The notes beneath the pieces are model-generated. The model did not search any database, had not been told where the DNA came from, and was given only the letters and a program-made list of their open reading frames with translations. Below are positions 24,222-38,905 of a DNA stretch of 48,084 nucleotides, piece after piece. The translations under genes were made by a program, and so were the position numbers. How positions within the stretch are numbered: the first letter of the stretch is position 1; every line of letters starts with the position of its first letter. This DNA comes from Ktedonobacterales bacterium (GTDB lineage: Bacteria; Chloroflexota; Ktedonobacteria; Ktedonobacterales; JADMIN01): assembly GCA_035642255.1 (NCBI GenBank), contig DASQSS010000381.1, forward strand, positions 1-48,084, written 5' to 3'.

Positions 24222-24241
24222 CGAGGTGGCGCTCTCACGCC

Positions 24242-25132: not shown

Positions 25133-25171
25133 GGCCCCCGATTCTGGGCGAAAACCCTCGAATCGGGGGCC
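25133..25171 (+). terminator. Hairpin terminator after the YflT-like gene
   Basis: 12-bp perfect stem GGCCCCCGATTC / GAATCGGGGGCC with a 15-nt loop, followed by ATTGTCATT. Confidence 0.5.
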
Positions 25172-25436
25172 ATTGTCATTCTCCCCAACCCAACTCCTAT
25201 GGCTCACGGCGCGATGCGAACAGCTCCCGACTACGAGCGCGCCGCGTGATTGAGAGTGATTGAGACAAGTATGTGAGATGTGCGGCTCGAATTGAGATGA
25301 GAATGTTCATTGGCGGGGATAGGTTCAGAGCGACGGCGCGAGCGTCAGCCTCGCGGAGTAGGCTCTAACGCTCAGGTCAGCCGTCAGCCCGCTGGCGCAT
25401 CACTGACAAGCCAGCCGGTAAGAAGGAGCGTTTCTC

Positions 25437-25877
25437 ATGACGCAGCCCGCACCCGTGCAAACGGTCGATCGTATGTCGCTGATCGTCTTTTCTGGAACCG
25501 TGGACAAGTTGCTAGCCGCCTCCATCCTCGCGACTGGCGCCGCCGCGATGGGACTGGAAGTCGAAATCTTCCTCACGACGTGGGGTATCTTGTCGTTCCG
25601 CAAAGACGACTATCTGACCAACACGCGCCTCAGCAAGGACTTCGAAGAATATGGCCCTGCCATGATGGAAGCCATGCAGGCGAAAAAGGCTACCTCATGG
25701 ATGGAGAACCTGCGCGGCGCCAAAGAAATCGGCGACGTGAAGGTGTTCGCGTGCAGCATGACGATGGAACTGTTCGGCATCAAGCAAAGCGACCTGGACC
25801 CAATCGTGGACGAAGTCACTGGCGTCGCGACGTTTGTCGAACGGGCTAAGGACGCCAAAGTCACACTGTTCATCTGA
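25437..25877 (+). CDS. DsrE/DsrF-like sulfur-relay family protein
   Basis: LIVFSGTVDKLLAASILATGAAAMGLEVEIFLTTWG and VFACSMTMELFG fit the DsrE-like (COG2210-type) pattern. AAGGAG SD upstream. Confidence 0.75.
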   Translation: MTQPAPVQTVDRMSLIVFSGTVDKLLAASILATGAAAMGLEVEIFLTTWGILSFRKDDYLTNTRLSKDFEEYGPAMMEAMQAKKATSWMENLRGAKEIGDVKVFACSMTMELFGIKQSDLDPIVDEVTGVATFVERAKDAKVTLFI

Positions 25878-26001
25878 TTCTCGTTGTCTCGGACCCTTGG
25901 TTTGATGAGCCCGAGATAGAAGGGCGCCGCCGCACCTGCGGCAAGACAGAACACGCTCAGCCGGCGCCGCCCTTTCCAGCATAGGATGGAGGTTTCCCAT
26001 C

Positions 26002-26250
26002 ATGACAGCGCCACAGGATCTCAAAGTCAGCATGGATATCGACGCACGCGGCAGCTTCTGCCCTGGCCCGCTCATGGAGCTGATTCGCGGTATCAAGTCC
26101 CTCAAAGTGGGCGACGTGCTCGCGGTGCGGTCGGGTGATCCCGGCTCGAACAAGGACATCCCCGCGTGGATCCAGAAGGCTGGGCACGAATTCATCGGCG
26201 CTTTCCCCGAAGCTGACTGCACACGCTTCGTTGTGCGCAAGATGCGTTAA
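26002..26250 (+). CDS. TusA/SirA-like sulfurtransferase
   Basis: 82 aa with the diagnostic DARGSFCPGPLM (CPxP) motif. Confidence 0.85.
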   Translation: MTAPQDLKVSMDIDARGSFCPGPLMELIRGIKSLKVGDVLAVRSGDPGSNKDIPAWIQKAGHEFIGAFPEADCTRFVVRKMR

Positions 26251-26264
26251 GAGGGAGCCAAACG

Positions 26265-27467
26265 ATGGCACGGCGTATCGTCATTATCGGTGGCGGGGTT
26301 GGCGGGACGATCCTCGCTAACGTGCTCGCTCGCCGACTCTCGCCCGAAGAAGCTGATGTAACCCTGATTGACAGCACAGGTGTCCATGTCTATATGCCCG
26401 CCTGGCTGTATGTGCCATTCAGCGATGAGCCAGTGAGTCGGAGCCAGTTCGAGCGCCCCGAAGACACCCTGCTGAATCACCGCGTGCACCTGGTCGTCGG
26501 TGAGGTCACGAAGATCGACCCCGCCAATCGTACGCTGGAAGTGAGTCACGGGACCAGCCGCCCGACCATCAAAGGCACGGGCGGGGCCACCAGCGCGATG
26601 TACATGTACGATGAGCTTGTGCTGGCGACGGGCGCCCGGCTGGCTCCGCAAGACCTGACCGGTCTGAGCGAGGCGGCTGGCGCCTATAACGAGTTCTACA
26701 GCGCGCAGGGGGCGTACAACCTGCGCGAGGCGCTCCAGTCGTTCGAGGGTGGGCGCATCGTGGTCGCCGTCGGCGGCATTCCCTACCGATGTCCGCCTGC
26801 GCCGCTGGAGTTCACATTCCTGCTCGATGAGTGGCTGCGACGCCACCACTTGCGCGACAAGACCGAGATCGAGTACCTCTTCCCGCTGCCACGCGTGTTC
26901 CCCATTGAGACCGTGGCTGATGTCGCCGCGCCGCTGCTCGAACAGCAGGGGGTAAAGACGCGGCTGTTCTTCAATGCCGATGAGGTGGATGGCGAGCACA
27001 AGGTCATCAAGTCGCTGGAGGGCGAAGAGGTTCCCTACGATCTGTTGGCTCTCATTCCCCCACATCGCGGCTCGCAGGTGGTCGAGGCGAGCGGGCTGGG
27101 CGATCCACAGGGGTGGGTGGTGACCAACCGCACGACACTGGAAGTAACCAATCACGAGCACATCTATGCGCTCGGCGACGCGACCAATCTGCCCGTTTCA
27201 AAGAGCGGGTCTGCGGCGCACTTCGAGGCAAAGGCGCTGGCTACGCGGCTCGTGGCGCTGGTGCGGGGCGAGCAGCCAGATTCCGAGCATGCCGAGTATG
27301 ATGGTGAGGTGATGTGTTTCCTGGAGACAGGAAACAACCGCGCGACGCAGCTGGTCTTCAACTACGAGAACCCGCCGCATCCGCCGAAGCCAAGCCTCTA
27401 CTATCATATGGAGAAGCAGCTCTTCAATCACGCCTACTGGTACATCGTCCCGCAAGGGATCGTGTAG
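26265..27467 (+). CDS. FAD-dependent sulfide:quinone oxidoreductase-like flavoprotein
   Basis: RIVIIGGGVGGT dinucleotide fold. Conserved-Cys contexts PYRCPPAPLEF and EVMCFLETG resemble the two redox cysteines of SQR-type enzymes. Confidence 0.8.
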   Translation: MARRIVIIGGGVGGTILANVLARRLSPEEADVTLIDSTGVHVYMPAWLYVPFSDEPVSRSQFERPEDTLLNHRVHLVVGEVTKIDPANRTLEVSHGTSRPTIKGTGGATSAMYMYDELVLATGARLAPQDLTGLSEAAGAYNEFYSAQGAYNLREALQSFEGGRIVVAVGGIPYRCPPAPLEFTFLLDEWLRRHHLRDKTEIEYLFPLPRVFPIETVADVAAPLLEQQGVKTRLFFNADEVDGEHKVIKSLEGEEVPYDLLALIPPHRGSQVVEASGLGDPQGWVVTNRTTLEVTNHEHIYALGDATNLPVSKSGSAAHFEAKALATRLVALVRGEQPDSEHAEYDGEVMCFLETGNNRATQLVFNYENPPHPPKPSLYYHMEKQLFNHAYWYIVPQGIV

Positions 27468-27477
27468 GCGCTCATGA

Positions 27478-27525
27478 CCATCTCAGCATGGCTGGCGCGA
27501 GCGCGCCGGGGTCGTGCTGAGATGG
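27478..27525 (+). terminator. Hairpin terminator after the SQR-like gene
   Basis: 11-bp perfect stem CCATCTCAGCA / TGCTGAGATGG enclosing a second GGCGCG/CGCGCC helix, followed by CTTCGTGCGTTGTATTCTT. It begins 11 nt after the stop. Confidence 0.55.
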
Positions 27526-27592
27526 CTTCGTGCGTTGTATTCTTAGTGCGTCAGGCCAGAGCCACCAGGACGATCTGGTCAACACATGTGGA

Positions 27593-27630
27593 CGATTCAG
27601 CGGCGCACCCCCGCCAGCGCCGCTGAATCG
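27593..27630 (+). other. 14-bp perfect hairpin in the SQR/cytochrome b spacer
   Basis: CGATTCAGCGGCGC / loop ACCCCCGCCA / GCGCCGCTGAATCG. No U-tract. ~170 nt upstream of the 41-aa ORF. Confidence 0.6.
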
Positions 27631-27801
27631 CTCGTTCATCCGATCCGGCGTTCCGGCGTTTGTGACTCAAGACACGTTTACCCCCAGGCGCAGGGCGCCG
27701 CCACATGACGAACTTATTCCGCCACGCGCTACCCACTGCTACCACACGCTATGTCGTACGCGCTCACCTTGACACGGGAGCGATCCGAGAGGAGAAACAA
27801 C

Positions 27802-27927
27802 GTGTCTCAGTACGTACAGTTTGGCGCTATTCTCATCACCGTCCCTAACCTGATTGTCATCGGCACGATGATCGTTGTGTTCGCGCTTGGCCTATGGCTG
27901 AAGCTTCCGAGCCATACGAACGAATAG
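27802..27927 (+). CDS. 41-aa single-TM peptide (below the ORF-track length cutoff)
   Basis: GTG at 27802 is preceded by GAGAGGAGAAAC. It encodes VSQYVQFGAILITVPNLIVIGTMIVVFALGLWLKLPSHTNE. Its stop (27925-27927) is embedded in the TAGGAG SD of the cytochrome b gene. Confidence 0.4.
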   Translation: MSQYVQFGAILITVPNLIVIGTMIVVFALGLWLKLPSHTNE

Positions 27928-27936
27928 GAGATCATC

Positions 27937-29574
27937 ATGTCCAACTGGACGTTGACGGTGCGCCGCCAGGTTGACAAGCACTTCCCAAACGACCAGCTCT
28001 TGCCAGATCAGCAACCCGCATTTGTGCGCTCGTCCCTCTATCTGCTGGGCGCGGCGACCCTCGTCAGCTTCATTGTCGTCATTCTCAGCGGCGTCGTATT
28101 GGCGCTGTTCGGGCCACAGTGGTGGCATCAGTCCGCTGTAGGGCATTTCTTCAACAGCGTACACTTCTGGAGTGTTCAGGCGTTCTTCTTCTCCATGGCC
28201 CTCCACCTGTGGACGACGTTCTTCATGGGCGCCTGGCGCGATGGGCGCGCAAAGACCTGGATGATCGGAGTGCTGGCGTTCATCGTGAGCATTCTCACCG
28301 CGTTTACCGGCTATCTCTCGCAGACCAACTTTGACTCGCAGTGGATCGCGGTCTCGGCCAAAGACCTGATGAATTCCATGGGCGTCGGGGGGTTCTTCAA
28401 CCCGCTCAACTTCGGCCAGATGTACACCTATCACATCTTTGTGTTTCCGGCGCTCGTCGCCGCTATCATCGTTCTCCACGTCCTGCTGGTACGGCTGCGC
28501 GGCGTGGTGCGTCCTTACCCGGCTCGCGGCGAGCAGCGTGAAGCCTATCACAAGGGCATGACCCAGACGGAATACTTCCGCGGCGTGCGGATGGCGCCCT
28601 ATGACCTCATCCGCGAGGTCACGATCATTGGCGCTGTGATCCTTGTGCTGGTGGTGGTGTTCGCTGGCGTGTACTCATCTGGCGATGAGCGGCCACTGAC
28701 CCTGCAGAGTGTGGCGCAGAGCGATCCCGTTGGCTTCACCACCGTGAGCCTCTCTGAGCTGGACGGCAGCAGCGCGATCGCTGGCTACGGTCAGCCCTAT
28801 AACACCGCGACCGGCGCGACCCAGGCGCTGGGGCCAATCTCATTCCAGCAGCTGGGCGGCGTGACGATTCCGGTCGATACCGCGCAGGTGTATGTGTATG
28901 GGCCGCTGGCGACCATACACAATGAGTCCGTGCTGGCAGCGGTCGATACGTACAAAGCGGCGTCGGCTGATCAGCAGTCCAAATGGACCACCAGCTATTC
29001 CGACGCGCTAGCGAAAAACACCAACGAAGCGTTGGATGCGAACGGCGCCCTTGTCCTGCCAGCGGGCGATTACGGCCCACTGCCGACGATGTTCAACACA
29101 CTGCTTGTCAACGCGCGCAGCGGCTCGCTCGATGGCATTTTGCTGGCAAGCGGCACATTCTATCAGACGGACTACACCAAGTCGCTGCTCTTCCTGAATG
29201 AGAGCGCCCTGCCCGACAAAGCGAGCGCGGAGCATCTCGCGGGCGATCAGTGGGGCATGATGAATGAGCCGGGAGCCTATCCGGGGCAGGCGTGGCTTTG
29301 GCTCTACACACTGTGGTATCAGGTACCGGCGGGGCCGTTCAATGGGCCAAACGCTGACGTCGCGGTCGCGGTTGTGATGTTCATTCTCACCGCGCTGTTG
29401 TTCCTGGTACCGTTCATACCTGGCCTCGAAAGCCTGCCACGCTATCTGCGGCTCTACCGCGTCATCTGGCGCGATCACTATCGAGAAATGGAGCGTGGCC
29501 AGTCGCCTTCGGGTAGCGGAGTGCGCGCCGCTGGCGGGCCTATGGCGCGGCGCATGACGGGGCGCACACAGTAG
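27937..29574 (+). CDS. Cytochrome b6-like N-terminal domain fused to a large C-terminal extracytoplasmic region
   Basis: Four N-terminal helices with His pairs spaced H-x13-H (VHFWSVQAFFFSMALH) and H-x14-H (HIFVFPALVAAIIVLH). A fifth TM follows, then ~230 soluble residues and a last TM. Confidence 0.8.
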   Translation: MSNWTLTVRRQVDKHFPNDQLLPDQQPAFVRSSLYLLGAATLVSFIVVILSGVVLALFGPQWWHQSAVGHFFNSVHFWSVQAFFFSMALHLWTTFFMGAWRDGRAKTWMIGVLAFIVSILTAFTGYLSQTNFDSQWIAVSAKDLMNSMGVGGFFNPLNFGQMYTYHIFVFPALVAAIIVLHVLLVRLRGVVRPYPARGEQREAYHKGMTQTEYFRGVRMAPYDLIREVTIIGAVILVLVVVFAGVYSSGDERPLTLQSVAQSDPVGFTTVSLSELDGSSAIAGYGQPYNTATGATQALGPISFQQLGGVTIPVDTAQVYVYGPLATIHNESVLAAVDTYKAASADQQSKWTTSYSDALAKNTNEALDANGALVLPAGDYGPLPTMFNTLLVNARSGSLDGILLASGTFYQTDYTKSLLFLNESALPDKASAEHLAGDQWGMMNEPGAYPGQAWLWLYTLWYQVPAGPFNGPNADVAVAVVMFILTALLFLVPFIPGLESLPRYLRLYRVIWRDHYREMERGQSPSGSGVRAAGGPMARRMTGRTQ

Positions 29575-29616
29575 TCGCCAGCGTGTCTGGCGTTCACGGA
29601 GTCCAAGACGTGACGT

Positions 29617-29670
29617 GCCCTCGCCTTCTGTTCCCCTCATTTCATATGAGAGGGGTCAGGGGGTGAGGGC
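29617..29670. repeat. GC-rich REP-like imperfect palindromic element (copy 2)
   Basis: GCCCTCGCCTTCTGTTCCCCTCA / TTTCATA / TGAGAGGGGTCAGGGGGTGAGGGC. It shares the GGGTGAGGGCGC end with copy 1 and is followed by an 11-mer whose inverse recurs at 29817-29827. Confidence 0.6.
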
Positions 29671-29840
29671 GCGTCGCCATATGCGCTGGAGTGATCTGTT
29701 TTCGTGTCTCTCTGTGTTCCAGCGGCTTCCGCGTCGCTCACAGTGGCGTCACAAAGCGCGCGTCGTATGTCAACCTCCGCTCTCAGGGCAGGGCGCGGAT
29801 GCGTGACCGGTGTGCGGCGCATATGGCCCTCGCGCCTCGG

Positions 29841-29859
29841 CTGTGACGCGCCTGTGACG
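29841..29859 (+). promoter_or_regulatory. Direct repeat CTGTGACG x2 (11-bp period) upstream of USP-2
   Basis: CTGTGACG at 29841-29848 and 29852-29859. TGTGATCGTGA follows at 29890-29900. ~140 nt upstream of the USP-2 ATG. Confidence 0.35.
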
Positions 29860-29998
29860 TCGACGAGAGACTGCCAGGGGGAACTGTGCTGTGATCGTGA
29901 GCCACTGCCCATACAGTGATCAGTGGTGGAGTGGAATATAGCGCGACGCAACACCCTCGCGCTCCCTGGCATGTCTGGTCGCGGACAGGAGGAAATCG

Positions 29999-30922
29999 AT
30001 GTTCACACGAGTGCTGGCGCCCATTGACACGCATCCTGATGCGATTGTCTCGGTGGCATTGGCCGAGCAGATTGCGCGTCATACACACGCCGAGCTATTC
30101 CTCATGCGTGTCGTCCCGGATGCGACGTCGAAAGGCGACGTCGTCGCCCACAGGGAAAGTCTCGAGCGTTTGGCTGCGGACATCACCGTGCGTGGGGGAC
30201 TGGAACCGCATATCGAAGTGGTTACCGGTCGTCCTGACGCCCGCATCCTCGAAACCGCTGAGCGGGAGGATGTCGATCTAATTGTCCTCGCGCCGCATGC
30301 TCGCGCTGGACTCGACGCGCTTCGTCACCGCAGCGTCACGACCCGGCTGATCTCGCATACGGCGGTTCCCCTCCTCGTCGCGCCTGAGCACAACATCGGC
30401 TCCTGGCCCGCTGGGCTCCTCTCCGCGGCGACCTCGCTGGTGATCGTGCCCGTGGACGGCACAGCGCTCTCCGAGCAAGCTATTGGCATTGGCGAACGCA
30501 TCGCCGAGACATGGGAGCGCCCGCTGCTGCTGTTGCGGGTCATCGAGCCATTCAGCTTGTATGGCGCTGGACCGACGACGACGCTCCTGGAGCGGCAGCT
30601 CAGCGAGGAAGACGCTCAGCAGGCGCATAGCGTGCTGAGTAATCTGCGGGCGCGTGTGGCGCGGCAGACGAATGTCGCGGTGGAGGCGATGGTCAAGCAG
30701 GGCGCCGCGGATCGCGTCATCGCGCAAGCCGCCGATAGCTATCCGGGCAGCCTGATCGTGATGAGCACGCATGGACGCAAGGCGACCGAGCGTGCGGTGC
30801 TGGGGAGTGTCGCGCTGAATGTGTTGCGGCGCAGCCACGAGCCGACACTGATTCTGCCGCCTATGGCTGTCATGCGGCGGGCGATGGCGCATGCGGGCGC
30901 CACAGCCGAGTTGGAGTGGTAA
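29999..30922 (+). CDS. Universal stress protein, tandem USP domains (USP-2)
   Basis: Two USP halves (MFTRVLAPIDTHPD...; VIVPVDGTALSEQA...; MSTHGRKATERAVLGSVALNVLRR). GGAGGAAA SD upstream. Confidence 0.85.
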   Translation: MFTRVLAPIDTHPDAIVSVALAEQIARHTHAELFLMRVVPDATSKGDVVAHRESLERLAADITVRGGLEPHIEVVTGRPDARILETAEREDVDLIVLAPHARAGLDALRHRSVTTRLISHTAVPLLVAPEHNIGSWPAGLLSAATSLVIVPVDGTALSEQAIGIGERIAETWERPLLLLRVIEPFSLYGAGPTTTLLERQLSEEDAQQAHSVLSNLRARVARQTNVAVEAMVKQGAADRVIAQAADSYPGSLIVMSTHGRKATERAVLGSVALNVLRRSHEPTLILPPMAVMRRAMAHAGATAELEW

Positions 30923-30982
30923 GGCGCCAAACGGCAGGCGTAGTGTCGCGCGTGCACCGCGTTGTTGAAAGGATATGAGCGC

Positions 30983-33007
30983 ATGGTCACGTCTCCGATT
31001 GAACGGACGCCAAGAACGACGCCCGCAGAGGAGAGACCGCCCAGCGCGGGCGCGGAATCGCGCGCGACGACGCTCTGGCGTTTGGCGCGTCGCTATCCCA
31101 TTCCACTGGTCGCGGCGGGACTGCTGCTGATCAGCGGCATGCTCGCGCTGGCGGCTCCGGCGAACCTCTGGCGCTGGCCTCTGCTGCTGATTATCGTAGT
31201 TGGAGGCGCGCCGCTGCTGATCGAGACGGCGCGCCAACTTGTCCACCGTGAATTCGGCGTGGATCTGCTCGCCGCGATGGCCATCGTCGGTTCCCTGCTT
31301 CTCGGGGAGTATCTGGCGGGCGCGGTCATCGTGCTGATGCTCTCGGGCGGTGAGGCGCTCGAAGCATTCGCGCTGAGCCGCGCGCGCCGCTCGCTCTCCG
31401 CGTTGGCGGAGCGGGCGCCCCGTGTCGCGCACCTCTTCGTCAATGGTGAGCTGGTGACGGTCGCGGCTGACACAGTGGAGGTCGGCGCGCAGGTCATTGC
31501 CAAGCCAGGCGAGGTCATTCCCGTGGATGGCGTCGTGGCCGAGGGAAGCTCCAGTGTGAGCGAGGCTGACCTGACAGGTGAACCGGTCCCATTGCGCAAG
31601 GAGCCAGGGTCGCTCGTCCTCTCAGGCAGCCTCAATCTCGATAGCCCGTTGCGCATCAACGCAACCAAGCGCAGCGCCGAGAGCCAATACGCGCAGATCG
31701 TGCGGCTGGTTGAAGAGGCGCAAGCCAGCAAGGCGCCCATCCACCGCCTGGCTGATAGATATGCGGTGTGGTTCACTGCCATCGCGGTGGTCGTGGCCGC
31801 CGTCGCGTGGATCCGTACCGGGCAGCCAGTAGATGCGCTCGCTGTGCTGGTCGTCGCGACCCCCTGCCCGTTGATTCTGGCGACCCCGATCGCCATCATG
31901 TCTGGCATTGACCGCGCCGCGCGCGACGGCCTCATTACCAAGAGCGGCGCGACCATTGAAGATCTTGGCGGGGTCGATGTGGTCGTCTTTGATAAGACTG
32001 GAACCCTGACCCTGGGCATGCCAAAGCTGACCGAGGTGGCGGCGGTCTCTGTGGCGAGTGAAGGCGCCGCCACGATAGCGAGTAGAGCGACGCCTGATCA
32101 GGATACGCTGATCGCGCTGGCCGCTTCGGTCGAGCAATATTCGCCACACATTCTGGCGCGGGCTGTGGTTGACGCCGCGCACGAACGAGGCGCCCAATTG
32201 CGCGCTGTTACCGATATGCGCGAGATTCCCGGCCAGGGCATTGAGGGTAATGTCGCCTATGCCGACCACGGCGTTGACCAGATCAAGGTCGCGGTTGGCA
32301 ATCGCGCCTACCTGGGCAGCCTCGGCATTGACCTGCCCTCTGCCGTCACCGATGAACGGGCGCGCCGTACCGAGCAAGGGCAAATTGTGAGCTTCCTCGC
32401 GCTCGACGGTCAGTTCATGGGTCTGCTCGTCTTCGCTGATGTGCCACGCCCGGAGCTGGCGCAGCTCACGCCAGAGTTGAAGGCGGCAGGCATCAAGCAA
32501 ACGGTGCTCCTGACAGGCGACGGCGTGACCGTCGCGGAGCAAATTGGCAAGCTGGCGCACGTTGATCGTGTGGTGGCGCACTGCCTGCCAGAGAACAAAG
32601 TGGCCGTCGTGCGTGAGCTGCAGGAGAGCGGGAGCCATGTGCTTATGGTGGGTGATGGCGTCAACGACGCGCCTGCGCTGGCGACGGCGTCTGTGGGCAT
32701 CGCCATTGGTTCGCAAGGGCTGACAGCCGCCTCATCCGCCGCCGACGCGGTGCTACTCTCGCCGAACATCCTGCGCATCGCCTCGTCGGTGCGGCTGGGG
32801 CGTCAGGTAATGCGGGTCGCGCGCCAGGGCATCGGGATCGGCATTGGGTTGAGCATCATCGCGATGATTTTCGCCGCTTTAGGATATATTCCACCGACAG
32901 AGGGCGCGCTGCTGCAAGAGGTTATCGACGTGATCGTCATCCTCAACGCGCTGCGGGCGGGGCGACAGGGATTGAGGGAGGAGCGACATGGCGACCAAAC
33001 CCGCTAA
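30983..33007 (+). CDS. P1B-type heavy-metal P-type ATPase with TPCP transmembrane motif, no N-terminal metal-binding domain
   Basis: DKTGTLT, LLTGDG, GDGVNDAPAL. The TM metal site reads ATPCPLILATP (TPCP). The short N-terminus has no CxxC. The start is uncertain (ATG 30983 or TTG 30962). Confidence 0.9.
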   Translation: MVTSPIERTPRTTPAEERPPSAGAESRATTLWRLARRYPIPLVAAGLLLISGMLALAAPANLWRWPLLLIIVVGGAPLLIETARQLVHREFGVDLLAAMAIVGSLLLGEYLAGAVIVLMLSGGEALEAFALSRARRSLSALAERAPRVAHLFVNGELVTVAADTVEVGAQVIAKPGEVIPVDGVVAEGSSSVSEADLTGEPVPLRKEPGSLVLSGSLNLDSPLRINATKRSAESQYAQIVRLVEEAQASKAPIHRLADRYAVWFTAIAVVVAAVAWIRTGQPVDALAVLVVATPCPLILATPIAIMSGIDRAARDGLITKSGATIEDLGGVDVVVFDKTGTLTLGMPKLTEVAAVSVASEGAATIASRATPDQDTLIALAASVEQYSPHILARAVVDAAHERGAQLRAVTDMREIPGQGIEGNVAYADHGVDQIKVAVGNRAYLGSLGIDLPSAVTDERARRTEQGQIVSFLALDGQFMGLLVFADVPRPELAQLTPELKAAGIKQTVLLTGDGVTVAEQIGKLAHVDRVVAHCLPENKVAVVRELQESGSHVLMVGDGVNDAPALATASVGIAIGSQGLTAASSAADAVLLSPNILRIASSVRLGRQVMRVARQGIGIGIGLSIIAMIFAALGYIPPTEGALLQEVIDVIVILNALRAGRQGLREERHGDQTR

Positions 33008-34124
33008 TGACCAGAAGCGCTATCTGGTGAACCTGCGCGAGGAACGCGATTCCTCGGCGCTCTATCGTGGCCTGGCGGAGATCGAGAAGGACCCACGCCT
33101 GGCGGACGTCTATCGGCGCATGTCCGAGGTTGAGAGCCGCCACGCCGCCACCTGGGGCGCCCTGCTGCGCGACGCGGGGCAATCCGCGCCGCCGGATGCG
33201 CCGACCTTGCGTGTGCGGACGCTGCTCTGGATGGCGCGACGCTTCGGCGCGGGCATGGTCTTGCCGATGATCGCCTCATCTGAGCGCGGCGCCAGCCACA
33301 GCTACGATGCGCAGCCTGAAGCGCGAGCCGCTGGCATGCCCGCCGATGAGCGCTCACACGAGCGCGTCTTTGGCATGCTGCTGCAAACGACGAAGGGCGG
33401 AGTCGCTGGCTCTGTGCTTGCGCAGCTCGAAGGGCGTCACCGTGGCACGTCGGGCGGCAATGCCTTGCGCGCAGCGGTGCTCGGCTCCAGCGACGGGCTG
33501 ACCTCCAATCTGAGCCTCGTGATGGGTGTCGCGGGCGCATCGCTCCAGCCGCACCAAATCCTGCTCACTGGACTTGCAGGACTGCTGGCTGGCGCGCTCT
33601 CGATGGCGATTGGCGAATGGCTCTCCGTGCAGAGCGCTCGCGAGCTGTATGGCAGCCAGATCAATGTCGAGCGCCAGGAGTTGGAGGCGAGGCCGGAGGA
33701 AGAGCGCGAGGAGCTCTCGCTGATCTATCAGGCCAAGGGACTAGACGCCGCCGCCGCGAATGATCTGGCCGCGCGCATCGTCTCGGACCCGACGACCGCG
33801 CTCGATACCCTCGCGCGCGAGGAGCTGGGTATTGATCCAAAGGAACTGGGCGGCTCAGCGTGGGAAGCGGCTATCGCATCGTTCATGCTGTTCGCGGTTG
33901 GCGCGATCATTCCAGTCATTCCGTTCATTTTTCTGGCAGGCCTGACCGCTGTCGCGGTCAGTATTGGGCTGAGCATTCTGGGGCTGTTCACCATTGGCGC
34001 GGGCATCACGCTGACCACGGGCTCGCCGCTGTGGAAGGCGAGTGGCCGTCAGATCATCATGGGAATCGCCGCCGCGCTGATTACGTTCGGCCTGGGTCGC
34101 CTGGTTGGTGGTGCGCTCGGTTGA
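32988..34124 (+). CDS. Erythrin/ferritin-like domain fused to VIT1/CCC1 transporter (MbfA-like iron exporter)
   Basis: The N-terminal four-helix region has two ExxH motifs (EVESRH, DERSHE). The C-terminus is a polytopic VIT1-like domain (LGSSDGLTSNLSLVMG...). The ATG overlaps the ATPase 3' end by 20 nt, with a GGGAGGAG SD. Confidence 0.85.
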   Translation: MATKPANDQKRYLVNLREERDSSALYRGLAEIEKDPRLADVYRRMSEVESRHAATWGALLRDAGQSAPPDAPTLRVRTLLWMARRFGAGMVLPMIASSERGASHSYDAQPEARAAGMPADERSHERVFGMLLQTTKGGVAGSVLAQLEGRHRGTSGGNALRAAVLGSSDGLTSNLSLVMGVAGASLQPHQILLTGLAGLLAGALSMAIGEWLSVQSARELYGSQINVERQELEARPEEEREELSLIYQAKGLDAAAANDLAARIVSDPTTALDTLAREELGIDPKELGGSAWEAAIASFMLFAVGAIIPVIPFIFLAGLTAVAVSIGLSILGLFTIGAGITLTTGSPLWKASGRQIIMGIAAALITFGLGRLVGGALG

Positions 34125-34419
34125 GTCGCGCCCGACTAAATCGCTCCCGGCAGAATTGAGGCTGGTGGGTGAGAGGACATCGAGAAACCTGGTTGATGCG
34201 CTGTGACACGTCTGTGAGCGGCGCGGCATAGGCTCTGAGTATGAGGCGATGCCCCCACCTGAGGGCGGAGCGCACAGAGAGTGATAACCATGGCACAGCG
34301 CTGGCACGGTCGCGCTCCGGCTCGAAACGTCGGACGATGATACTCCAGGCAGCGTCGCTTGAGAGCGAATCAATCATCACTCATCGGGCGCCCCGCCCTC
34401 AGGCTATTCAAGAACCATG

Positions 34420-34432
34420 CATGCAATGCATG
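34420..34432. promoter_or_regulatory. Palindrome CATGCA-A-TGCATG within an ATGCAT-rich cluster
   Basis: Read directly from the sequence. The cluster CATGCATGCAATGCATGTGTGCATG spans 34416-34440, ~55 nt upstream of the ATG at 34492. Confidence 0.35.
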
Positions 34433-34491
34433 TGTGCATGTTCACGGATGGAGCCCGCGACCGAACATGCGGGCACAGAAGGAGCGACGAC

Positions 34492-34776
34492 ATGACAACG
34501 CTGTTCACGTCTGGCAATCCGCTAAGGGATAACACGTTGACGACCGCCACCGCTACAAAGGTCACCACGCCAGCGGCGGAGGCGCCGATCGATACGAGCG
34601 CGTTGGCCGATGACGCTTATCTCGCCGAGCGGCTAGACGCCGAGCGGCTGGATCGGCAGGCGCGGCGGATCGCTACCATTGTCGCGTCGGCGCTGCTCGT
34701 CGCCGCCTTCGCAACGGGCGCTGCGACAATTCTGGTGCGGCGCTACGCGAAACAGCGCGGCGAGGCCGCCCTATAG
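34492..34776 (+). CDS. Hypothetical tail-anchored membrane protein (94 aa)
   Basis: ATG 34492 lies 7 nt after AAGGAG. C-terminal TM IATIVASALLVAAFATGAATILV. No family recognised. Confidence 0.4.
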   Translation: MTTLFTSGNPLRDNTLTTATATKVTTPAAEAPIDTSALADDAYLAERLDAERLDRQARRIATIVASALLVAAFATGAATILVRRYAKQRGEAAL

Positions 34777-34829
34777 GGCCGCAGGGCGACATGCTCGCGG
34801 CTCCGCTACCATCGCGGAGGGAGGGCGCC

Positions 34830-35738
34830 ATGTTCGAGCGTATGCTTGCCGCAGTTGATGAGTCAGCGCGCGCGGAGCAGGTCATGCGCATGGGCCGCGC
34901 TCTGGCGCAGGATTCAGGTGGCGCGCTGATCGTGCTGCGGGTGCGTCCGGACCCGCCAGTGCTCGACCGCGTGACCAACGGCGACGTGGCGCTGGCGGAG
35001 CAGACGGGCGCCCTGCGCGCAGCGGGCATCGCGGCCCACTATCTCGTGCACGCTGGCAGCCCCGAGCGGCAAATCATCGAGACGGCGCGTCAGCAGCGAT
35101 CCACGCTGATCATCATCGCGGCGCGCGAGAATGGTCCGCATCTGGCGCCACGCCGACGCATGACGGACCGGCTGGCTGCTCGAGCGCCCGCGCCACTGCT
35201 GGTCATTCCAGAGGACAACTCCCAGGCGTCAGTGGCGTCAACGGACGTGGACGGGACTGAGTTCTTCGGCCCCGATGGAGCGCCCGTCCTAGTCGCACTG
35301 GATGGCTCACCCCTGGCGGAGCGTGCGCTGCCCTACGCGGCGGAGCTTGCGGCGCGACTTGGGCGCCCGCTGGCGCTGCTGCGCGTCGCCTCGCCACTGC
35401 GCTCGCAAGAACAACTCGCCGAGGCCTGGTCGTATGTGGAGAGCGCGCGGCGGCGTGTGCGTGAGCGAATCTCGCGTGATCTATCGATTGACGCGCAGGT
35501 GGTCGTCGGCGCGCCGATCGACGAACTGCTCTGGGCGGTCGAGGGGCGGAGAGCGTGCGCTATCGTTCTGACGGCGCGGGGTCAGCACGAGGGGCGTCCG
35601 CAGCGCGCTAGCGCCATCACGCTTGACGTAGTGCGCAAGCTGCGGATTCCCGCGCTTATCATTCCCTCGCCTGTGCTCGCATCTGATCCTCAGGTGGAAT
35701 TGCAGCCAGCTAAAGGCCTTGGCGATAGGGCGCCATAG
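34830..35738 (+). CDS. Universal stress protein, tandem USP domains (USP-3)
   Basis: MFERMLAAVDES... and VLVALDGSPLAERALPYAAELA... halves. ATG 34830 follows GGAGGGAGGG. Confidence 0.85.
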   Translation: MFERMLAAVDESARAEQVMRMGRALAQDSGGALIVLRVRPDPPVLDRVTNGDVALAEQTGALRAAGIAAHYLVHAGSPERQIIETARQQRSTLIIIAARENGPHLAPRRRMTDRLAARAPAPLLVIPEDNSQASVASTDVDGTEFFGPDGAPVLVALDGSPLAERALPYAAELAARLGRPLALLRVASPLRSQEQLAEAWSYVESARRRVRERISRDLSIDAQVVVGAPIDELLWAVEGRRACAIVLTARGQHEGRPQRASAITLDVVRKLRIPALIIPSPVLASDPQVELQPAKGLGDRAP

Positions 35739-35805
35739 CGTCGTATGCTTCTGGCATGAGGCGCCAGGGGATGGCGCGGGTGCTGTGAGAAACGGAGCGG
35801 AAGCC

Positions 35806-36690
35806 ATGGCACAGGCGGATGGTCACGTCATACTGACGCCACTCGACGGCTCAGAGATGTCGGAGTTCGCGGTTCCTTATACCGCTGAGGTTGCGAGGGC
35901 ACTGGGCGCGACGGTTCTGATAGCGCGCATCGTCGAGCGCACGCGTTGGAGCGCCGCAAGCTCCGGCTACATGATGTCGCCAGGCGCCTATACGGAGCTG
36001 CTGGAGCTTGATGAGCGCGACGCGCAGGCGCAGACCCATCGCGTGGTCGAGCGACTGACGGCGCAGGGTGTGGCAGCGCGCGGCCTCGTGGAGGACGCCG
36101 ACCTGCCCGCCGATCTCATCGACATCGAGAGGCGAGAGCATGTCTCACTGGTAGTCATGGCGACTCACGCGCGCAGTGGGCTCGCGCGGGTGACACTGGG
36201 CAGCGTCGCTGATCAGCTTGTGCGTCATGGCCGCTGCCCAACCTTGCTGGTACGGGCGCATGGCGCCTTGCCAGAGCGGCCAGCGCTTGCCCGCGCGCTC
36301 ATCCCGCTGGACGGCTCGGCAGTGAGCGAGCTGGCGTTGGCGGAACTGGCGAACGTGGCGGGTACGCTGGTGAAGCAGGTCACGCTGCTGCGAGTCATCG
36401 GCCCGGAGGAGCGCAGCGGAGCCTCCGCCGAGGGACATCGCGCGTTGGAGGCGGCGCGTGAGCGGGTCGAGCGCGCGTCTGAGTCGCTGCGTGGGCAGGT
36501 CAAGACGCTCGTGATGTGGGGACAGGTCGCGCAGCAGGTCCTCGACGAATCGGCGCGCCACGATCTCATCATCATGGCGACCCACGGCGCGGGTGGCGCG
36601 ACCCGCTGGGCATTTGGCAGCGTCGCGGATCAAGTTCTCAGTGAAGCGCAGGCGCCGCTGCTGCTCACGCGGCCTCATCACAAACCATAA
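35806..36690 (+). CDS. Universal stress protein, tandem USP domains (USP-4)
   Basis: VILTPLDGSEMSEFAVPY..., MATHARSGLARVTLGSVADQLVRH, and a second half ending MATHGAGGATRWAFGSVADQVL. Confidence 0.85.
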   Translation: MAQADGHVILTPLDGSEMSEFAVPYTAEVARALGATVLIARIVERTRWSAASSGYMMSPGAYTELLELDERDAQAQTHRVVERLTAQGVAARGLVEDADLPADLIDIERREHVSLVVMATHARSGLARVTLGSVADQLVRHGRCPTLLVRAHGALPERPALARALIPLDGSAVSELALAELANVAGTLVKQVTLLRVIGPEERSGASAEGHRALEAARERVERASESLRGQVKTLVMWGQVAQQVLDESARHDLIIMATHGAGGATRWAFGSVADQVLSEAQAPLLLTRPHHKP

Positions 36691-36898
36691 GGCGACACGC
36701 ATAGCTGTGTAGGCCGCCACGGTCAGCGGAAGGGCGACGAAAGTTTTACGCCATTTCACTGAGCGTGGCGGCTCGTTCTGTGACCCATCTCTCAATACGC
36801 GCCCGAGCCATGTGAAACGATGAAGACACAAGGAAGACACGAGCGGATGCAGGTCGCGCCTCTCACGGGATGACGCAAAGCGTGACATTGACGCCTGG

Positions 36899-36922
36899 CT
36901 TCGTGATGCGCATGTGATGACG
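36899..36922 (+). promoter_or_regulatory. Composite box CTTCGTGATG-N4-TGTGATGACG upstream of hsp20
   Basis: CTTCGTGATGCGCATGTGATGACG. Two GTGATG direct repeats 11 bp apart. It ends 118 nt upstream of the hsp20 ATG, in the same orientation relative to the gene as the USP-1 copy. Confidence 0.55.
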
Positions 36923-37039
36923 AGCGCATATGTTGTGTGTGAACGCCATGGAAGGCTCCGCGCATCGGAGCGCGGCCAGAACCAGCATGGCGTCGCATCC
37001 CGGTAACAGGATGCGGTCACGGAAAGGAAGGACACGTCT

Positions 37040-37498
37040 ATGGCAAAGGAACCGCGTGAGTTGACCTCGTGGGAACCGTTCGGCATGGTGACGCCGCTCC
37101 GTGAGGCGATGAACCGCCTGTTCGAAGACAGCTTCATCAGCCCTGCGCGCTTCGAGCCAATGTTTGGGCGCGGGCTCCCGCTCGACGTCTTCGAGGCCGA
37201 TAATGAGTTCATCATTGACGCCTCGCTGCCGGGCGTGAAACCCGAAGACCTGAAGGTGAGCGCGACCGACGACAGCCTGACCATCCGCGCAACAATGAAA
37301 CACGAGACGCACGACGAGCAAAAGGGCTCCTATGTGCGGCGTGAGCGTCAGGACGGCGAGGTCGTTCGCTCGATAGCGTTCGCCACTCCGATTGATCCGT
37401 CGAAGGTCAACGCCCACTACGAGCATGGCGTCTTGCGCGTTACGGCGCCGAAAGCCGAGGCCGCTAGACCACGACAGATTGATGTCACCGTGCACTAA
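37040..37498 (+). CDS. Small heat-shock protein, Hsp20/alpha-crystallin family
   Basis: Alpha-crystallin domain (LDVFEADNEFIIDASLPGVKPEDLKV...HGVLRVTAPK). AAGGAAGGA SD upstream. Confidence 0.93.
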   Translation: MAKEPRELTSWEPFGMVTPLREAMNRLFEDSFISPARFEPMFGRGLPLDVFEADNEFIIDASLPGVKPEDLKVSATDDSLTIRATMKHETHDEQKGSYVRRERQDGEVVRSIAFATPIDPSKVNAHYEHGVLRVTAPKAEAARPRQIDVTVH

Positions 37499-37532
37499 GC
37501 TCCATCACACTGAACAAGGCTGATGAGGCCGC

Positions 37533-37548
37533 ATCGTGACATCACGAT
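37533..37548. promoter_or_regulatory. 16-bp perfect palindrome ATCGTGA-CA-TCACGAT
   Basis: 7-bp arms read directly from the sequence. It lies between the hsp20 stop and its terminator hairpin, ~110 nt upstream of USP-5. Confidence 0.4.
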
Positions 37549-37549
37549 C

Positions 37550-37583
37550 ACGCGGGTGAGTGGCACGGTTCGCTCACCCGCGT
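37550..37583 (+). terminator. Hairpin terminator after hsp20
   Basis: 11-bp perfect stem ACGCGGGTGAG / CTCACCCGCGT with a 12-nt loop, 52 nt after the stop. No strong U-tract. Confidence 0.45.
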
Positions 37584-37586
37584 CTA

Positions 37587-37613
37587 ATAGATGTTGATAG
37601 ATGCTCATAGATG
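37587..37613 (+). promoter_or_regulatory. Three helically phased direct repeats ATAGATG (exact 10-bp period)
   Basis: ATAGATG at 37587, 37597 and 37607, immediately after the hsp20 terminator and 42 nt before the USP-5 ATG. Confidence 0.5.
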
Positions 37614-37654
37614 CGAAGGACAACGGCAACGACGCGCCAGAGAGGGGTGTCGAC

Positions 37655-38905
37655 ATGTCACAACAACAACAAACGCCTGAACCAGAGCGCGCGCGGACTG
37701 ATGCGGAGCCGTCGATGACGTCGCCTTCACTCTCCGAATTTGAAGCGCGTCAGGCGCATGAAGAGGCTCTGAAGCGCGCCAATCGTCCCGTGGCAGGCGA
37801 GGTGATGGCGGGAGCGCACGGGCGGGTCGAGGAGGAGACCCGGCGTTTGAGCGAGCGCATGACGCGCGAAGAGCAGGAGCGCCGTAAAGCGTTGGCGCTC
37901 GCCGATAAGCCAACTGCCGCATCCGCCCCCACCGCTGGCCCGGTGTCCGCGTCTGCGCGCCTCTTGCCGACGCCTGAGCGTATCCATTCGACGCTCGTTG
38001 CGCTAGATGGCTCGCCCTTCGCGGAGCGGGCGCTGCCCTATGCGGCGGCGCTGGCGCGCCTTACAGGTAGCGAGCTCATGCTTGGAACGTGCCTGCGCCG
38101 CGACGGGGCGCCAGTCGTCGAAGCCATCACGGCGCAGGCGACGGCGGGCGAGGCGCGCGACGGCGAGTCAGCCCAATTCTGGCGATCGCTCGTCAGCGCA
38201 CGCGCCCAATTGCTGGCGGATGGCGTGACGACGCGTGCGAGCGTTGTCTATGCTCCAGACGCCGCCGATGGGCTAGTCGCTCTGCAAACGACGATTGGAG
38301 CGGAGGCGCTGGCCGTGGCGACGCACGCGCGCACAGGAATCGAGCGGGCGGCGCTGGGCAGTGTCGCGGATGAGGTGGCGCGTCGCGGGCGTGGGCTTAC
38401 CCTGGTCGTCCCGCCATTCGCGCCAGAGGCCCCTCTGGATGGTGTCACGTTCGCGCGGGCATTGGTCCCGCTGGATGGCTCGGCGCTGTCTGAGCAGACC
38501 CTGCGCGCCATCCAGCCGCTCTTGCGGCGCGACACGACGGATGATACGTCTGGGCGGCGACATTTGAGTGAGCTGACGCTCTTCTTCGTCGCCGAAGACC
38601 ATGCGCAGATCAGAGACGCGGAATATTACCTCGATGATCTGCGCGAGGCGTTGCTGCGCGAGGCGACCGCGCCAACAACGATCACCACGCGGGTGATCCT
38701 TGGCTCAGCGCCCGGCGCCATCGTCGCTGAGGCCGCCGGGAACTCCGCGACGGATCCTACCCCAGACGGGCGTCACGACCTGATCATCATGGCGACCCAC
38801 GGGCGCAGTGGCCTCGGACGCTGGTTCTATGGCAGCGTGGCGATGTATGTCCTCGCGCATAGCGACGTTCCGGTGCTACTCGTACGCGCCAGCCAGACGC
38901 CATAG
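37655..38905 (+). CDS. Universal stress protein, tandem USP domains with ~110-aa charged N-terminal extension (USP-5)
   Basis: LVALDGSPFAERALPYAAALA..., VATHARTGIERAALGSVADEV, MATHGRSGLGRWFYGSVAMYVL. The N-terminus is Glu/Arg/Ala-rich. Confidence 0.8.
   Translation: MSQQQQTPEPERARTDAEPSMTSPSLSEFEARQAHEEALKRANRPVAGEVMAGAHGRVEEETRRLSERMTREEQERRKALALADKPTAASAPTAGPVSASARLLPTPERIHSTLVALDGSPFAERALPYAAALARLTGSELMLGTCLRRDGAPVVEAITAQATAGEARDGESAQFWRSLVSARAQLLADGVTTRASVVYAPDAADGLVALQTTIGAEALAVATHARTGIERAALGSVADEVARRGRGLTLVVPPFAPEAPLDGVTFARALVPLDGSALSEQTLRAIQPLLRRDTTDDTSGRRHLSELTLFFVAEDHAQIRDAEYYLDDLREALLREATAPTTITTRVILGSAPGAIVAEAAGNSATDPTPDGRHDLIIMATHGRSGLGRWFYGSVAMYVLAHSDVPVLLVRASQTP

Follow-up and report, generated by a model that had tools for sequence, protein, structure and literature searches.

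In a Ktedonobacterales (Chloroflexota) soil bacterium, the gene for a PCP-class metal pump and the gene for a VIT1 transporter overlap by 20 nt within an island of stress genes. The window analyzed here is the whole 48,084-nt stretch of contig DASQSS010000381.1. Both proteins belong to known families; it is their arrangement, which recurs in other genomes, that is modestly new. We favor, with some reserve, reading the locus as a two-gene metal-efflux module in a stress island, in which both proteins would lower the labile Fe(II) pool. A preliminary description of this DNA had already pointed out the gene pair, and its open reading frames (ORFs), domains, motifs, and overlap are confirmed below, but the interpretation attached to them proved only half right.

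The ATPase gene occupies positions 30983 to 33007 of the plus strand, starts with ATG, and encodes 674 amino acids (aa); a longer ORF from a TTG start at 30962 is possible. The transporter gene spans positions 32988 to 34124 on the same strand (378 aa). A tandem universal stress protein (Usp) gene (29999 to 30922, plus strand; 307 aa) lies 60 nt upstream of the ATPase gene, and its product matches Pfam Usp in two stretches (1.2e-40). The ATPase and VIT1 ORFs have a coding-type GC3 of 0.75 to 0.77, and each protein has thousands of homologues, so we judge both ORFs to be more than chance.

The pump has the actuator and HAD domains of P1B-type ATPases together with the TGE, DKTGT, TGD, and GDGxNDxP motifs (TGE198, DKTGT337, TGD511, and GDGVNDAP557) and a Cys-containing TM4 motif (TPCP293) before DKTGT. 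Its only Pfam matches are E1-E2_ATPase (PF00122; 6.5e-45) and the HAD family Hydrolase (PF00702; 1.3e-27), and the Pfam search found neither an HMA nor a Hemerythrin (PF01814) domain in it. The NCBIfam model for heavy-metal P-type ATPases (TIGR01525) gives 520.9 bits against a cutoff of 346. The metal-site motif in TM4 reads VVATPCPLILATP, with TPCP encoded at positions 31859 to 31870; the phosphorylation motif DKTGT follows at 31991 to 32005 and the TM6 motif QEVID at 32915 to 32929 (all on the plus strand). Since its sole cysteines are C295, within TPCP, and C534, the protein has no CxxC motif, in keeping with the earlier remark that an N-terminal CxxC domain is missing. It also ends right after the last helix (TM6), as first described, with 15 residues beyond ILNALRA (GRQGLREERHGDQTR).

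According to two articles (PMC13460109, PMC4932525), the P1B-5 subgroup is defined by a PCP signature, which the pump carries in its TM4 metal site. A [TS]PCP motif is likewise present in all 120 of its closest homologues and in 121 of the 150 nearest cluster representatives. The closest known systems for the pump include the Acidothermus cellulolyticus P1B-5 ATPase and S. meliloti Nia (SMa1163). Among the pSymA proteins, Nia matches the pump best; it is 44% identical to the pump over 584 aa and shares both TM4 (ATPCPLILA.P) and TM6 (GALLQE.ID..ILNALRA) with it, and neither protein has an N-terminal HMA. In a neighbor-joining tree, which has no support values and in which the intended outgroup rooting had no effect, the window pump falls among PCP pumps, and only one non-PCP outgroup sequence is not set apart from it. 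The pump is P1B-5-like, grouping more closely with Nia than with CPC or SPC pumps, and its initial assignment to the PCP-motif class is upheld. The best PDB sequence match is a P1B-4 protein, sCoaT (7QBZ; 263 bits), and P1B-4 members such as PfeT, FrvA, CtpD, and PmtA are, like the window pump, short P1B pumps without a classical HMA. The TM6 motif of P1B-4 is HEGxT, compared with QE..D in the window pump. P1B-4 is nevertheless a different subgroup, with SPC (PMC13460109) rather than TPCP in TM4; its pumps have been implicated in Fe2+ efflux and in peroxide or iron stress (PMC7762939).

The second gene has the MbfA-type erythrin-VIT1 architecture proposed for it: an N-terminal ferritin-like di-iron (erythrin) domain (about 33009 to 33392, plus strand) and a C-terminal VIT1/CCC1 membrane domain that includes Glu-rich cytoplasmic helices (about 33465 to 34100, plus strand). 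The four erythrin motifs (E19x6Y26, E49xxH52, E99x6Y106, and E121xxH124) do not vary across the 20 close and 21 distant homologues that were aligned. Of the HMM families named in the preliminary description, E1-E2_ATPase matched the pump and VIT1 (PF01988) matched residues 160 to 371 of the 378-aa transporter at 1.3e-67; Rubrerythrin stayed below threshold in the latter (20.1 versus 22.8 bits), and there was no hemerythrin match. A profile of the N-terminal domain did match rubrerythrin, sulerythrin, and encapsulated ferritin in the PDB (E = 2e-4 to 1e-2).

For the membrane part, the closest solved structure is that of Eucalyptus grandis VIT1 (EgVIT1; 6IU3/6IU4), which is also the closest PDB sequence (6iu3; E = 2.1e-22, residues 155 to 373). 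An AF2 model, in which the erythrin domain is of moderate confidence only, reaches a target-normalized TM-score of 0.76 against 6iu4/6iu3. D169 and M206 of the window protein align with the EgVIT1 Asp in GVSDGLT and Met in AISMGLGGY, which we take to be the transport residues D43 and M80, and the alignment extends over the Glu-rich cytoplasmic helices between TM2 and TM3. EgVIT1 is a plant vacuolar Fe2+/H+ antiporter without an erythrin domain, whereas the window protein has one. The VIT1 family is not restricted to iron: its members can transport Mn2+ or other metals as well. MbfA of Bradyrhizobium japonicum and Agrobacterium tumefaciens, compared here through the description of its architecture, has the same erythrin motifs and a VIT1/CCC1 domain. 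In proteobacterial MbfA-type proteins, the erythrin domain stands in place of the Glu-rich helices, by implication of a review (PMC7714665). Ferroxidase activity, iron export (which requires the erythrin domain), and Irr-controlled expression have been described for the alphaproteobacterial proteins (PMC7762939, PMC7714665); the window host belongs to the Chloroflexota, and Irr control is not expected in it.

The VIT1 gene begins inside the ATPase gene, at the place first reported. The junction (32977 to 33007, plus strand) consists of a Shine-Dalgarno sequence, GGAGG (32977 to 32981), a 6-nt spacer, the VIT1 ATG (32988 to 32990), and the ATPase stop codon TAA (33005 to 33007), giving an out-of-frame overlap of exactly 20 nt. 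Five related contigs (L001, L002, L003, L321, and L322) keep the same ATG/stop register at a protein identity of about 76 to 81%; the junction in L006 differs, with a 55-nt spacer carrying its own AGGAGG. A downstream start and its Shine-Dalgarno sequence inside the upstream ORF, conserved among relatives, is the pattern of a translationally coupled operon, and coupling of the ATPase and VIT1 genes is probable on these grounds.

The adjacency is also conserved more widely. In a survey of the kind suggested when the pair was first described, a VIT1 gene was found within 6 kb of the pump at 14 of 80 Ktedonobacteria PCP loci, variously downstream and overlapping, divergent, or upstream; as these loci are phylogenetically related, the counts are of nonindependent events. 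In Amaricoccus (L247), Leucobacter (L254), and a second Ktedonobacterales lineage (L022), a tail-less PCP pump is followed by an erythrin-less VIT1 whose gene overlaps the pump stop by 4 nt, as judged from mechanically called ORFs (in L022, with VIT1 read from a TTG start). Across a sample of 127 unique, diverse P1B loci, VIT1 lay within 6 kb of the pump at 3 of 27 PCP loci and at none of 89 non-PCP P1B loci (P = 0.0115 by a one-sided Fisher test). The pairing occurs in three phyla and with different VIT1 subtypes, and every VIT1-linked pump found is tail-less. Most PCP loci have no VIT1 nearby (66 of 80 in Ktedonobacteria and 24 of 27 elsewhere) and L088, a close relative, retains the island with its VIT1 gene but lacks the pump, so the two proteins are not mutually dependent. 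Because PCP pumps, unlike other P1B pumps, are repeatedly paired with VIT1/CCC1 genes, the pairing points to iron, or an iron-like metal, as the pump substrate. The proposal that two Fe(II) exporters are made together from overlapping genes stands at the genomic level, with the overlap kept and the pairing present in other phyla; Fe(II) export by both proteins is what we infer.

The view that PCP pumps usually carry a C-terminal hemerythrin domain, from which the absence of such a tail in the window pump had drawn its interest, did not hold up. The literature speaks of a hemerythrin-like domain in "some" P1B-5 members (PMC9388753). We found a Nia-like tail in 27 of 110 (25%) full-length [TS]PCP sequences, which represent the 50%-identity clusters nearest the query pump, in none of the 120 closest homologues of the window pump, and at about 7 of the 27 PCP loci in the diverse genome sample. 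With only 27 of 110 representatives carrying it, the tail is not a defining feature of P1B-5, and its absence is the norm among PCP pumps. The two P1B-5 members that have been studied both have hemerythrin tails, and our literature search returned no biochemically characterized tail-less PCP pump. Nia is 774 aa long, with hemerythrin at residues 640 to 766 (PF01814), where the window pump ends shortly after TM6. The part of the neighbor-joining tree that contains the window pump is large, tail-less throughout, and adjoins the CPC outgroup; the hemerythrin-bearing pumps lie elsewhere, with Nia.

The pump-VIT1 pair sits inside a Usp/Hsp20 island in which a direct repeat, TGTGAC-N5-TGTGA, is common to the promoter regions. 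Two exact copies (29738 to 29753, minus strand; 29842 to 29857, plus strand) lie 140 to 260 nt upstream of usp and form a candidate operator. A further exact copy (34202 to 34217, plus strand), 78 nt past the VIT1 stop, marks the start of the next unit, which consists of a small ORF (34417 to 34776) and two tandem-Usp genes. Elsewhere in the window, the box occurs between the divergent Usp and YflT genes and upstream of DsrE and Usp genes, and the Hsp20 upstream region has a weaker match with two mismatches. The window contains five matches with at most one mismatch against 0.54 expected (none of 100 shuffles reached five), and 948 kb of related loci contain 27 exact boxes, where 0.35 would be expected. 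The box immediately precedes the pump in L002, L021, L022, L039, L054, L320, and L321, and either upstream of the pump or in a divergent pump/VIT1 spacer at at least 11 loci; it occupies the same place after VIT1 in L001 (at 6031), L006 (at 9143), and L041 (at 2820).

No terminator-like site was found on the plus strand between positions 29500 and 35000, and a homologous Usp gene precedes the pump in L006 and L320. The usp gene is probably cotranscribed with the ATPase gene and likely heads a usp-ATPase-VIT1 transcription unit; a search for RNA runs containing the locus found none. The window contains no regulator gene, and we know of no described regulons in Ktedonobacteria. Read on the opposite strand, the box shows 7-bp direct repeats of the TCACA(G) type separated by 4 bp, in an 11-bp register. 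Its geometry is that of the Mycobacterium tuberculosis PhoP operator (TCACAGC-N4-TCACAGC), and the half-sites are almost identical, a likeness that we treat as a lead toward an OmpR/PhoB-family response regulator and not as an identification.

If the locus is a metal-efflux module, the pump would export a divalent transition metal at the expense of ATP through a site formed by TPCP in TM4 and QE..D in TM6, and the erythrin-VIT1 protein would act as an MbfA-like secondary transporter with a cytoplasmic di-iron domain. The two genes would be transcribed together, probably with the upstream usp, from the promoter region that holds the candidate operator, and the position of the VIT1 start would couple the synthesis of the two proteins. 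Labile Fe(II) could then be lowered in two ways, by a primary pump and by a gradient-driven route, with both exporters active once the Usp/Hsp20 stress or dormancy program is on. In S. meliloti, nia and mbfA have been described as the major, apparently redundant exits for Fe2+ (bioRxiv 10.1101/2022.09.08.507232), and Nia has been linked to Ni2+/Fe2+ and is upregulated at low O2 (PMC4932525; bioRxiv 10.1101/2022.09.08.507232). Unlike the window pair, nia (on pSymA) does not adjoin mbfA (SMc00359); nia has a usp gene 2.5 kb away, and usp also neighbors the window pump.

The two exporters might instead divide the labor, the pump removing Ni2+, Co2+, or some other thiophilic metal and the erythrin-VIT1 protein Fe2+/Mn2+, with coexpression arising because stress disturbs several metals and not from a common substrate. 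With its cysteine, TPCP makes a softer metal site than that of VIT1, which is all oxygen. Nia reportedly handles Ni2+ as well as Fe2+, the specificity of P1B-5 pumps is called poorly defined (PMC4932525, PMC13460109), and SPC (P1B-4) pumps carry Co2+/Ni2+/Zn2+ besides Fe2+ (PMC7762939, PMC13460109). However, a shared substrate more easily explains a linkage that is specific to PCP pumps and extends over three VIT1 subtypes and three phyla, and the island holds no Ni/Co-specific regulator or chaperone gene. We regard such a division as possible but rather doubtful.

It is also conceivable that the two proteins are physically or functionally coupled, with VIT1 serving as a partner of the pump instead of exporting on its own, and its erythrin or Glu-rich cytoplasmic domain capturing, sensing, or oxidizing iron and then handing the metal to the pump or gating it, so that VIT1 supplies the missing metal-binding domain. 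The pump itself lacks a metal-binding domain at either terminus, overlapping genes favor stoichiometric cosynthesis, and the VIT1-linked pumps are all tail-less. Effluxosomes are assemblies of a pump and an accessory protein. The title of a 2026 review names "effluxosomes" of M. tuberculosis P1B ATPases (PMC13460109). Yet some 75% of the family is tail-less, which makes a uniformly tail-less set a weak pattern (0.75^n, with nonindependent cases); moreover, most tail-less pumps have no VIT1 neighbor, the VIT1 partners found in other phyla have no erythrin domain, and L088 has VIT1 but no pump. Coupling of this kind seems unlikely to us. The same low credence goes to the more far-reaching idea that tail-less PCP pumps and VIT1 form a dedicated, repeatedly arisen iron-efflux module in which the erythrin/Glu-rich domain of VIT1 would be the iron-sensing or iron-delivering subunit and the overlap would fix the proportion of the two proteins.

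Rearrangement could have joined two unrelated membrane-protein genes with no functional link. The island is indeed fluid, as seen from the pump-less L088 and from the phosphoketolase and acetate kinase genes inserted upstream in relatives, and VIT1 is absent at most PCP loci. Chance adjacency nevertheless appears very improbable, given the overlapping stop/start pairings, with VIT1 of different subtypes, in Alphaproteobacteria, Actinobacteria, and two lineages of Ktedonobacterales, the lack of VIT1 neighbors at the 89 non-PCP P1B loci, and the conservation of the 20-nt overlap at a protein identity of about 76 to 81%. Least tenable is the earlier suggestion that a di-iron sensor was swapped from the pump C terminus to the neighboring exporter, which the results do not support: although both domains are four-helix di-iron bundles on putative Fe(II) exporters and the pump is tail-less where its neighbor has such a domain, the hemerythrin ligands (H-HxxxE-HxE/HxxxH-HxxxxD; PMC9388753) and erythrin ligands (Ex6Y/ExxH twice; PMC7714665) and the Pfam families differ, so hemerythrin did not simply move to become erythrin, the whole clade of the window pump is tail-less and separate from the hemerythrin-bearing one, erythrin-VIT1 proteins of the ~375-aa architecture are widespread and stand alone (a P-type ATPase was nearby at 0 of 80 diverse loci and 0 of 3 annotated plasmid loci), L088 has no pump, and no hemerythrin-like remnant or stand-alone hemerythrin ORF was found in the window, with a single marginal match (L077; E = 0.004) in 80 related loci.

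The preferred reading, of a two-gene efflux module, leaves the accepted view of both families unchanged. Few heavy-metal ATPases are as poorly understood as the P1B-5 pumps, and the tail-less form is seen here to be the common one. Gene pairs such as this are simple systems for asking why a primary and a secondary exporter are made together, and the enriched box shared across the Usp/Hsp20 island offers a starting point for studying a stress regulon of Ktedonobacteria.

The pump gene, starting at 30962 (TTG) or 30983 (ATG), ends at 33007 on the plus strand in our ORF list, and the gene for the erythrin-VIT1 transporter (Er-VIT1) runs from 32988 to 34124 on the same strand. As the TAA stop of the ATPase frame lies at 33005-33007, the two genes overlap by 20 nt, with the junction reading GGAGG-agcgac-ATG GCG ACC AAA CCC GCT AAT. 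Both ORFs have coding-type GC3 values (0.75 to 0.77) in a window of 65% GC. The preliminary description of this pair was borne out in every detail (ORFs, domains, motifs, and 20-nt overlap).

By Pfam, the 674-aa pump contains the E1-E2_ATPase and Hydrolase domains and no other, with neither an HMA nor a Hemerythrin domain found, and it passes NCBIfam TIGR01525 (heavy-metal P-type ATPases). Its motifs are TGE198, TPCP293, DKTGT337, TGD511, and GDGVNDAP557, it contains no cysteines other than C295 and C534, and its C terminus lies 15 residues beyond the sequence ILNALRA. The PCP motif in TM4 defines subgroup P1B-5, which is tied to Ni2+ and Fe2+; we use these definitions as given in papers that cite the primary studies (PMC13460109; PMC4932525). 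On S. meliloti pSymA, nia is the gene that matches the pump best, and the two proteins align with 44% identity over 584 aa. The two share ATPCPLILA.P in TM4 and GALLQE.ID..ILNALRA in TM6, but Nia runs on into a hemerythrin domain at 640-766 where the window pump ends.

In Pfam, the 378-aa Er-VIT1 product matches VIT1 strongly (1.3e-67) and Rubrerythrin below threshold. It carries all four motifs that a family review gives for erythrin (Ex6Y, ExxH, Ex6Y, and ExxH; PMC7714665), at E19/Y26, E49/H52, E99/Y106, and E121/H124, and these do not vary across 20 close homologues or across 21 more from other phyla (40 to 51% identity). A profile search of the N-terminal domain against the PDB matched rubrerythrin, sulerythrin, and encapsulated ferritins (E = 2e-4 to 1e-2). 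The membrane part matches EgVIT1 in sequence (E = 2.1e-22) and, in a moderate-confidence AF2 model (pLDDT 72.9, pTM 0.43), also appears to match it in predicted fold (target-normalised TM-score, 0.76). As the Foldseek ferritin matches of the modeled N-domain were weak and the model was only moderate, the erythrin call rests on the motifs and the profile search. Full-length erythrin-VIT1 proteins (∼370 aa) also occur in Rubrobacter, Thermomicrobium, haloarchaea, Burkholderia/Caballeronia, Mycobacterium, and Streptomyces relatives (plasmid matches H41-H99, e.g., L083, L084, and L085), some of the plasmid proteins being annotated as "demethoxyubiquinone hydroxylase family." A review's statement that MbfA proteins are confined to alphaproteobacteria is therefore true just for characterised examples.

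Homology suggests that the pump spends ATP to export a divalent metal and that Er-VIT1 exports iron, helped by the di-iron domain on its cytoplasmic side. For S. meliloti, Nia and MbfA are regarded as the two main routes by which Fe2+ leaves the cell, apparently redundant with each other, and low oxygen induces nia (bioRxiv 10.1101/2022.09.08.507232). The specific genomic linkage between PCP pumps and VIT1 genes favours a common substrate for the window's two proteins, which would most likely be Fe2+. A division of labour by metal is unlikely, though it is the alternative that we take most seriously: the Ni2+ association of P1B-5 would suit it, and the linkage would not.

The adjacency reported for the window is conserved elsewhere. 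In the closest relatives, the Er-VIT1 gene lies immediately downstream of the pump, with an identical 20-nt ATG/stop register in L001-L003, L321, and L322, and a VIT1 gene lies within 6 kb of the pump in 14/80 Ktedonobacteria loci. L006 has a 55-nt spacer in place of the overlap, the two genes are divergently transcribed in L017, L027, and L028, Er-VIT1 precedes the pump, in the same orientation, in L041, L070, and L078, and the pump is followed by a different, plant-like VIT1 without erythrin in L022 and L032. In Amaricoccus (L247) and Leucobacter (L254), the pump gene ends in a 4-nt stop-codon overlap with a VIT1 ORF that lacks erythrin, as it does in L022, provided that the TTG start of the L022 ORF is real. 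In the window, VIT1 would be translated from a Shine-Dalgarno sequence and an ATG that lie within the pump gene's last codons, and the form of the pairing would usually favour coupled translation. That the proteins build a physical module, which such coupling would suit, is nevertheless improbable; the pairing is neither universal nor obligatory. No P-type ATPase lay within 6 kb of Er-VIT1 in 80 diverse Er-VIT1 loci, and the gene stands alone in annotated loci of Rubrobacter, Thermomicrobium, and Haladaptatus. Locus L088 has an Er-VIT1 that is 83% identical and a syntenic island without the pump and, compared with the window, is a natural presence/absence polymorphism. The order in L088 is cytochrome b ... 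VIT1-Usp-Usp-Usp-GDSL, and two small membrane-protein ORFs (4041-6001) occupy the place of the window's usp and ATPase genes.

Outside Ktedonobacteria, our sample comprised 127 unique P1B loci among the matches listed, with 27 PCP and 89 non-PCP loci among them, and VIT1 was nearby in 3 of these 27 PCP loci versus none of the 89 non-PCP loci (P = 0.0115 by a one-sided Fisher test). The pairing is PCP-pump specific and has several origins, with differing VIT1 subtypes. Chance adjacency, which this specificity speaks against, is very improbable.

The preliminary description took a hemerythrin tail to be usual in PCP pumps, which our counts contradict. The tail is present in none of the 120 closest pump homologues, all of which have [TS]PCP. 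[TS]PCP occurs in 121 of the 150 nearest cluster representatives (50% identity), and a Nia-like tail is present in only 27 of the 110 full-length [TS]PCP representatives. The tail is a minority feature of PCP pumps; a review ascribes it to only "some" P1B-5 ATPases (PMC9388753). In a neighbour-joining tree, which is indicative only as it has no support values and the intended outgroup rooting had no effect, tailed pumps group around Nia, and the window pump falls in a large region without any tails, beside the CPC-type outgroup. The simplest reading, likewise indicative, is that the tail-less state is ancestral and common. A search for a split hemerythrin gene found no hemerythrin-like ORF in the window and one marginal match in 80 related loci; in the genome scans with diverse alignments, the matches listed included many non-PCP pumps, and the hemerythrin-bearing sample was ∼7 loci. 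The proposal that a di-iron domain was swapped between pump and exporter, attractive for a tail-less pump beside an erythrin-bearing partner, is hardly credible, since the erythrin domain accompanies VIT1 regardless of any pump, the pump pairs equally well with erythrin-less VIT1 genes, and hemerythrin and erythrin have differing ligand sets and match separate Pfam families.

Among the compared proteins are CPC-motif P1B ATPases of ∼990 to 1,020 aa, with a C-terminal SPFH/Band 7 domain in P0162 and P0238 (Pfam); P0212, P0226, P0233, P0234, P0249, P0260, and P0269 join this group by length and motif only. We know of no description of such a fusion. P0168 (1,098 aa) joins a TPCP pump, a hemerythrin tail, and an HlyD/CusB-type membrane-fusion domain in one ORF and is either a real fusion or the product of a missed stop codon.

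The window at ∼23 to 39 kb is a stress island. Its 15 kb (23293-38905) hold six Usp genes, of which four encode two Usp domains each, along with Hsp20, YflT, and DsrE, in the order Usp (minus strand), YflT, DsrE, sulfide:quinone-reductase (SQR)-like flavoprotein, cytochrome b, tandem Usp, ATPase, Er-VIT1, small ORF, two tandem Usp, Hsp20, and tandem Usp. For both proteins, the closest homologues are in soil Ktedonobacterales MAGs (Chloroflexota), and the island is kept in relatives with variations. Usp genes flank the PCP pump in about half of the 80 Ktedonobacteria loci, a usp gene is likewise found 2.5 kb from S. meliloti nia (L082), and some relatives (L320 and L321) have genes for phosphoketolase and acetate kinase immediately before the pump. 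The small ORF that separates VIT1 from the next Usp genes (34417-34776) encodes 119 aa with one C-terminal hydrophobic helix; a 95-aa gene is called at this position in L321 and L322. The window's isocitrate lyase and malate synthase (glyoxylate shunt; 203-3302), pyruvate kinase (12411-13955), and NAD-synthesis genes (nadC, 18835-19809; nadA, 19872-21182) are ordinary metabolism and context only. Our search for expression evidence returned matches in soil DNA metagenomes only.

The island's intergenic regions have in common a TGTGAC-N5-TGTGA direct repeat (11-bp register). With at most one mismatch, this box occurs five times in the window versus 0.54 expected (0/100 shuffles reached five): in the divergent Usp/YflT spacer (24333-24348), upstream of DsrE (25261-25276), twice upstream of the usp gene preceding the pump (29738-29753 and 29842-29857), and 78 nt past the VIT1 stop (34202-34217). 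Hsp20 is preceded by a weaker copy that has two mismatches (36778-36794). Exact copies number 27 in 948 kb (the window and 80 related loci) versus 0.35 in Markov simulations, a ∼75-fold enrichment, and copies with at most one mismatch directly precede the pump or occupy the divergent pump/VIT1 spacer in L001, L002, L021, L022, L027, L028, L039, L041, L054, L320, and L321. A gap of 60 nt separates usp from the ATPase gene, with no terminator-like site on the plus strand, and usp, the pump, and Er-VIT1 are probably transcribed together from the usp promoter region that carries the boxes.

Viewed in the opposite orientation, this box consists of two 7-bp direct repeats separated by 4 bp, closely resembling the M. 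tuberculosis PhoP site TCACAGC-N4-TCACAGC (PMC4832192). This likeness points to an OmpR/PhoB-family response regulator, making the box, as a lead only, a candidate regulon operator. No regulator gene was found among the window ORFs Pfam-scanned or inspected (a few, at 21-23 and 40-44 kb, by inspection only). We rejected an operator like that of mycobacterial DosR, as the window contains no match to the DosR-type palindrome GGGACNNNNGTCCC. A scan of 29500-35000 gave no promoter-like site and a single terminator-like site, which is on the minus strand, with none on the plus strand; such a scan says little about promoters that, as here, are high-GC and of non-sigma70 consensus.

The pump and Er-VIT1 each add a member to a known family. 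The literature searched handles P1B pumps and MbfA/VIT1 as separate iron-exporter classes and does not mention pump-VIT1 operons, so the recurrent PCP-pump/VIT1 pair and the tail-less P1B-5 majority are modest additions, of use to specialists rather than surprising. We infer the substrates, co-transcription, coupling, regulator, and inducing signal, and we hold with moderate confidence the explanation that the pump and Er-VIT1 are made together, share a substrate that is most likely Fe2+, and lower labile iron under stress. For the organism, the Usp/Hsp20 island suggests that this lowering of labile iron would belong to the stress or dormancy state that the island signals.
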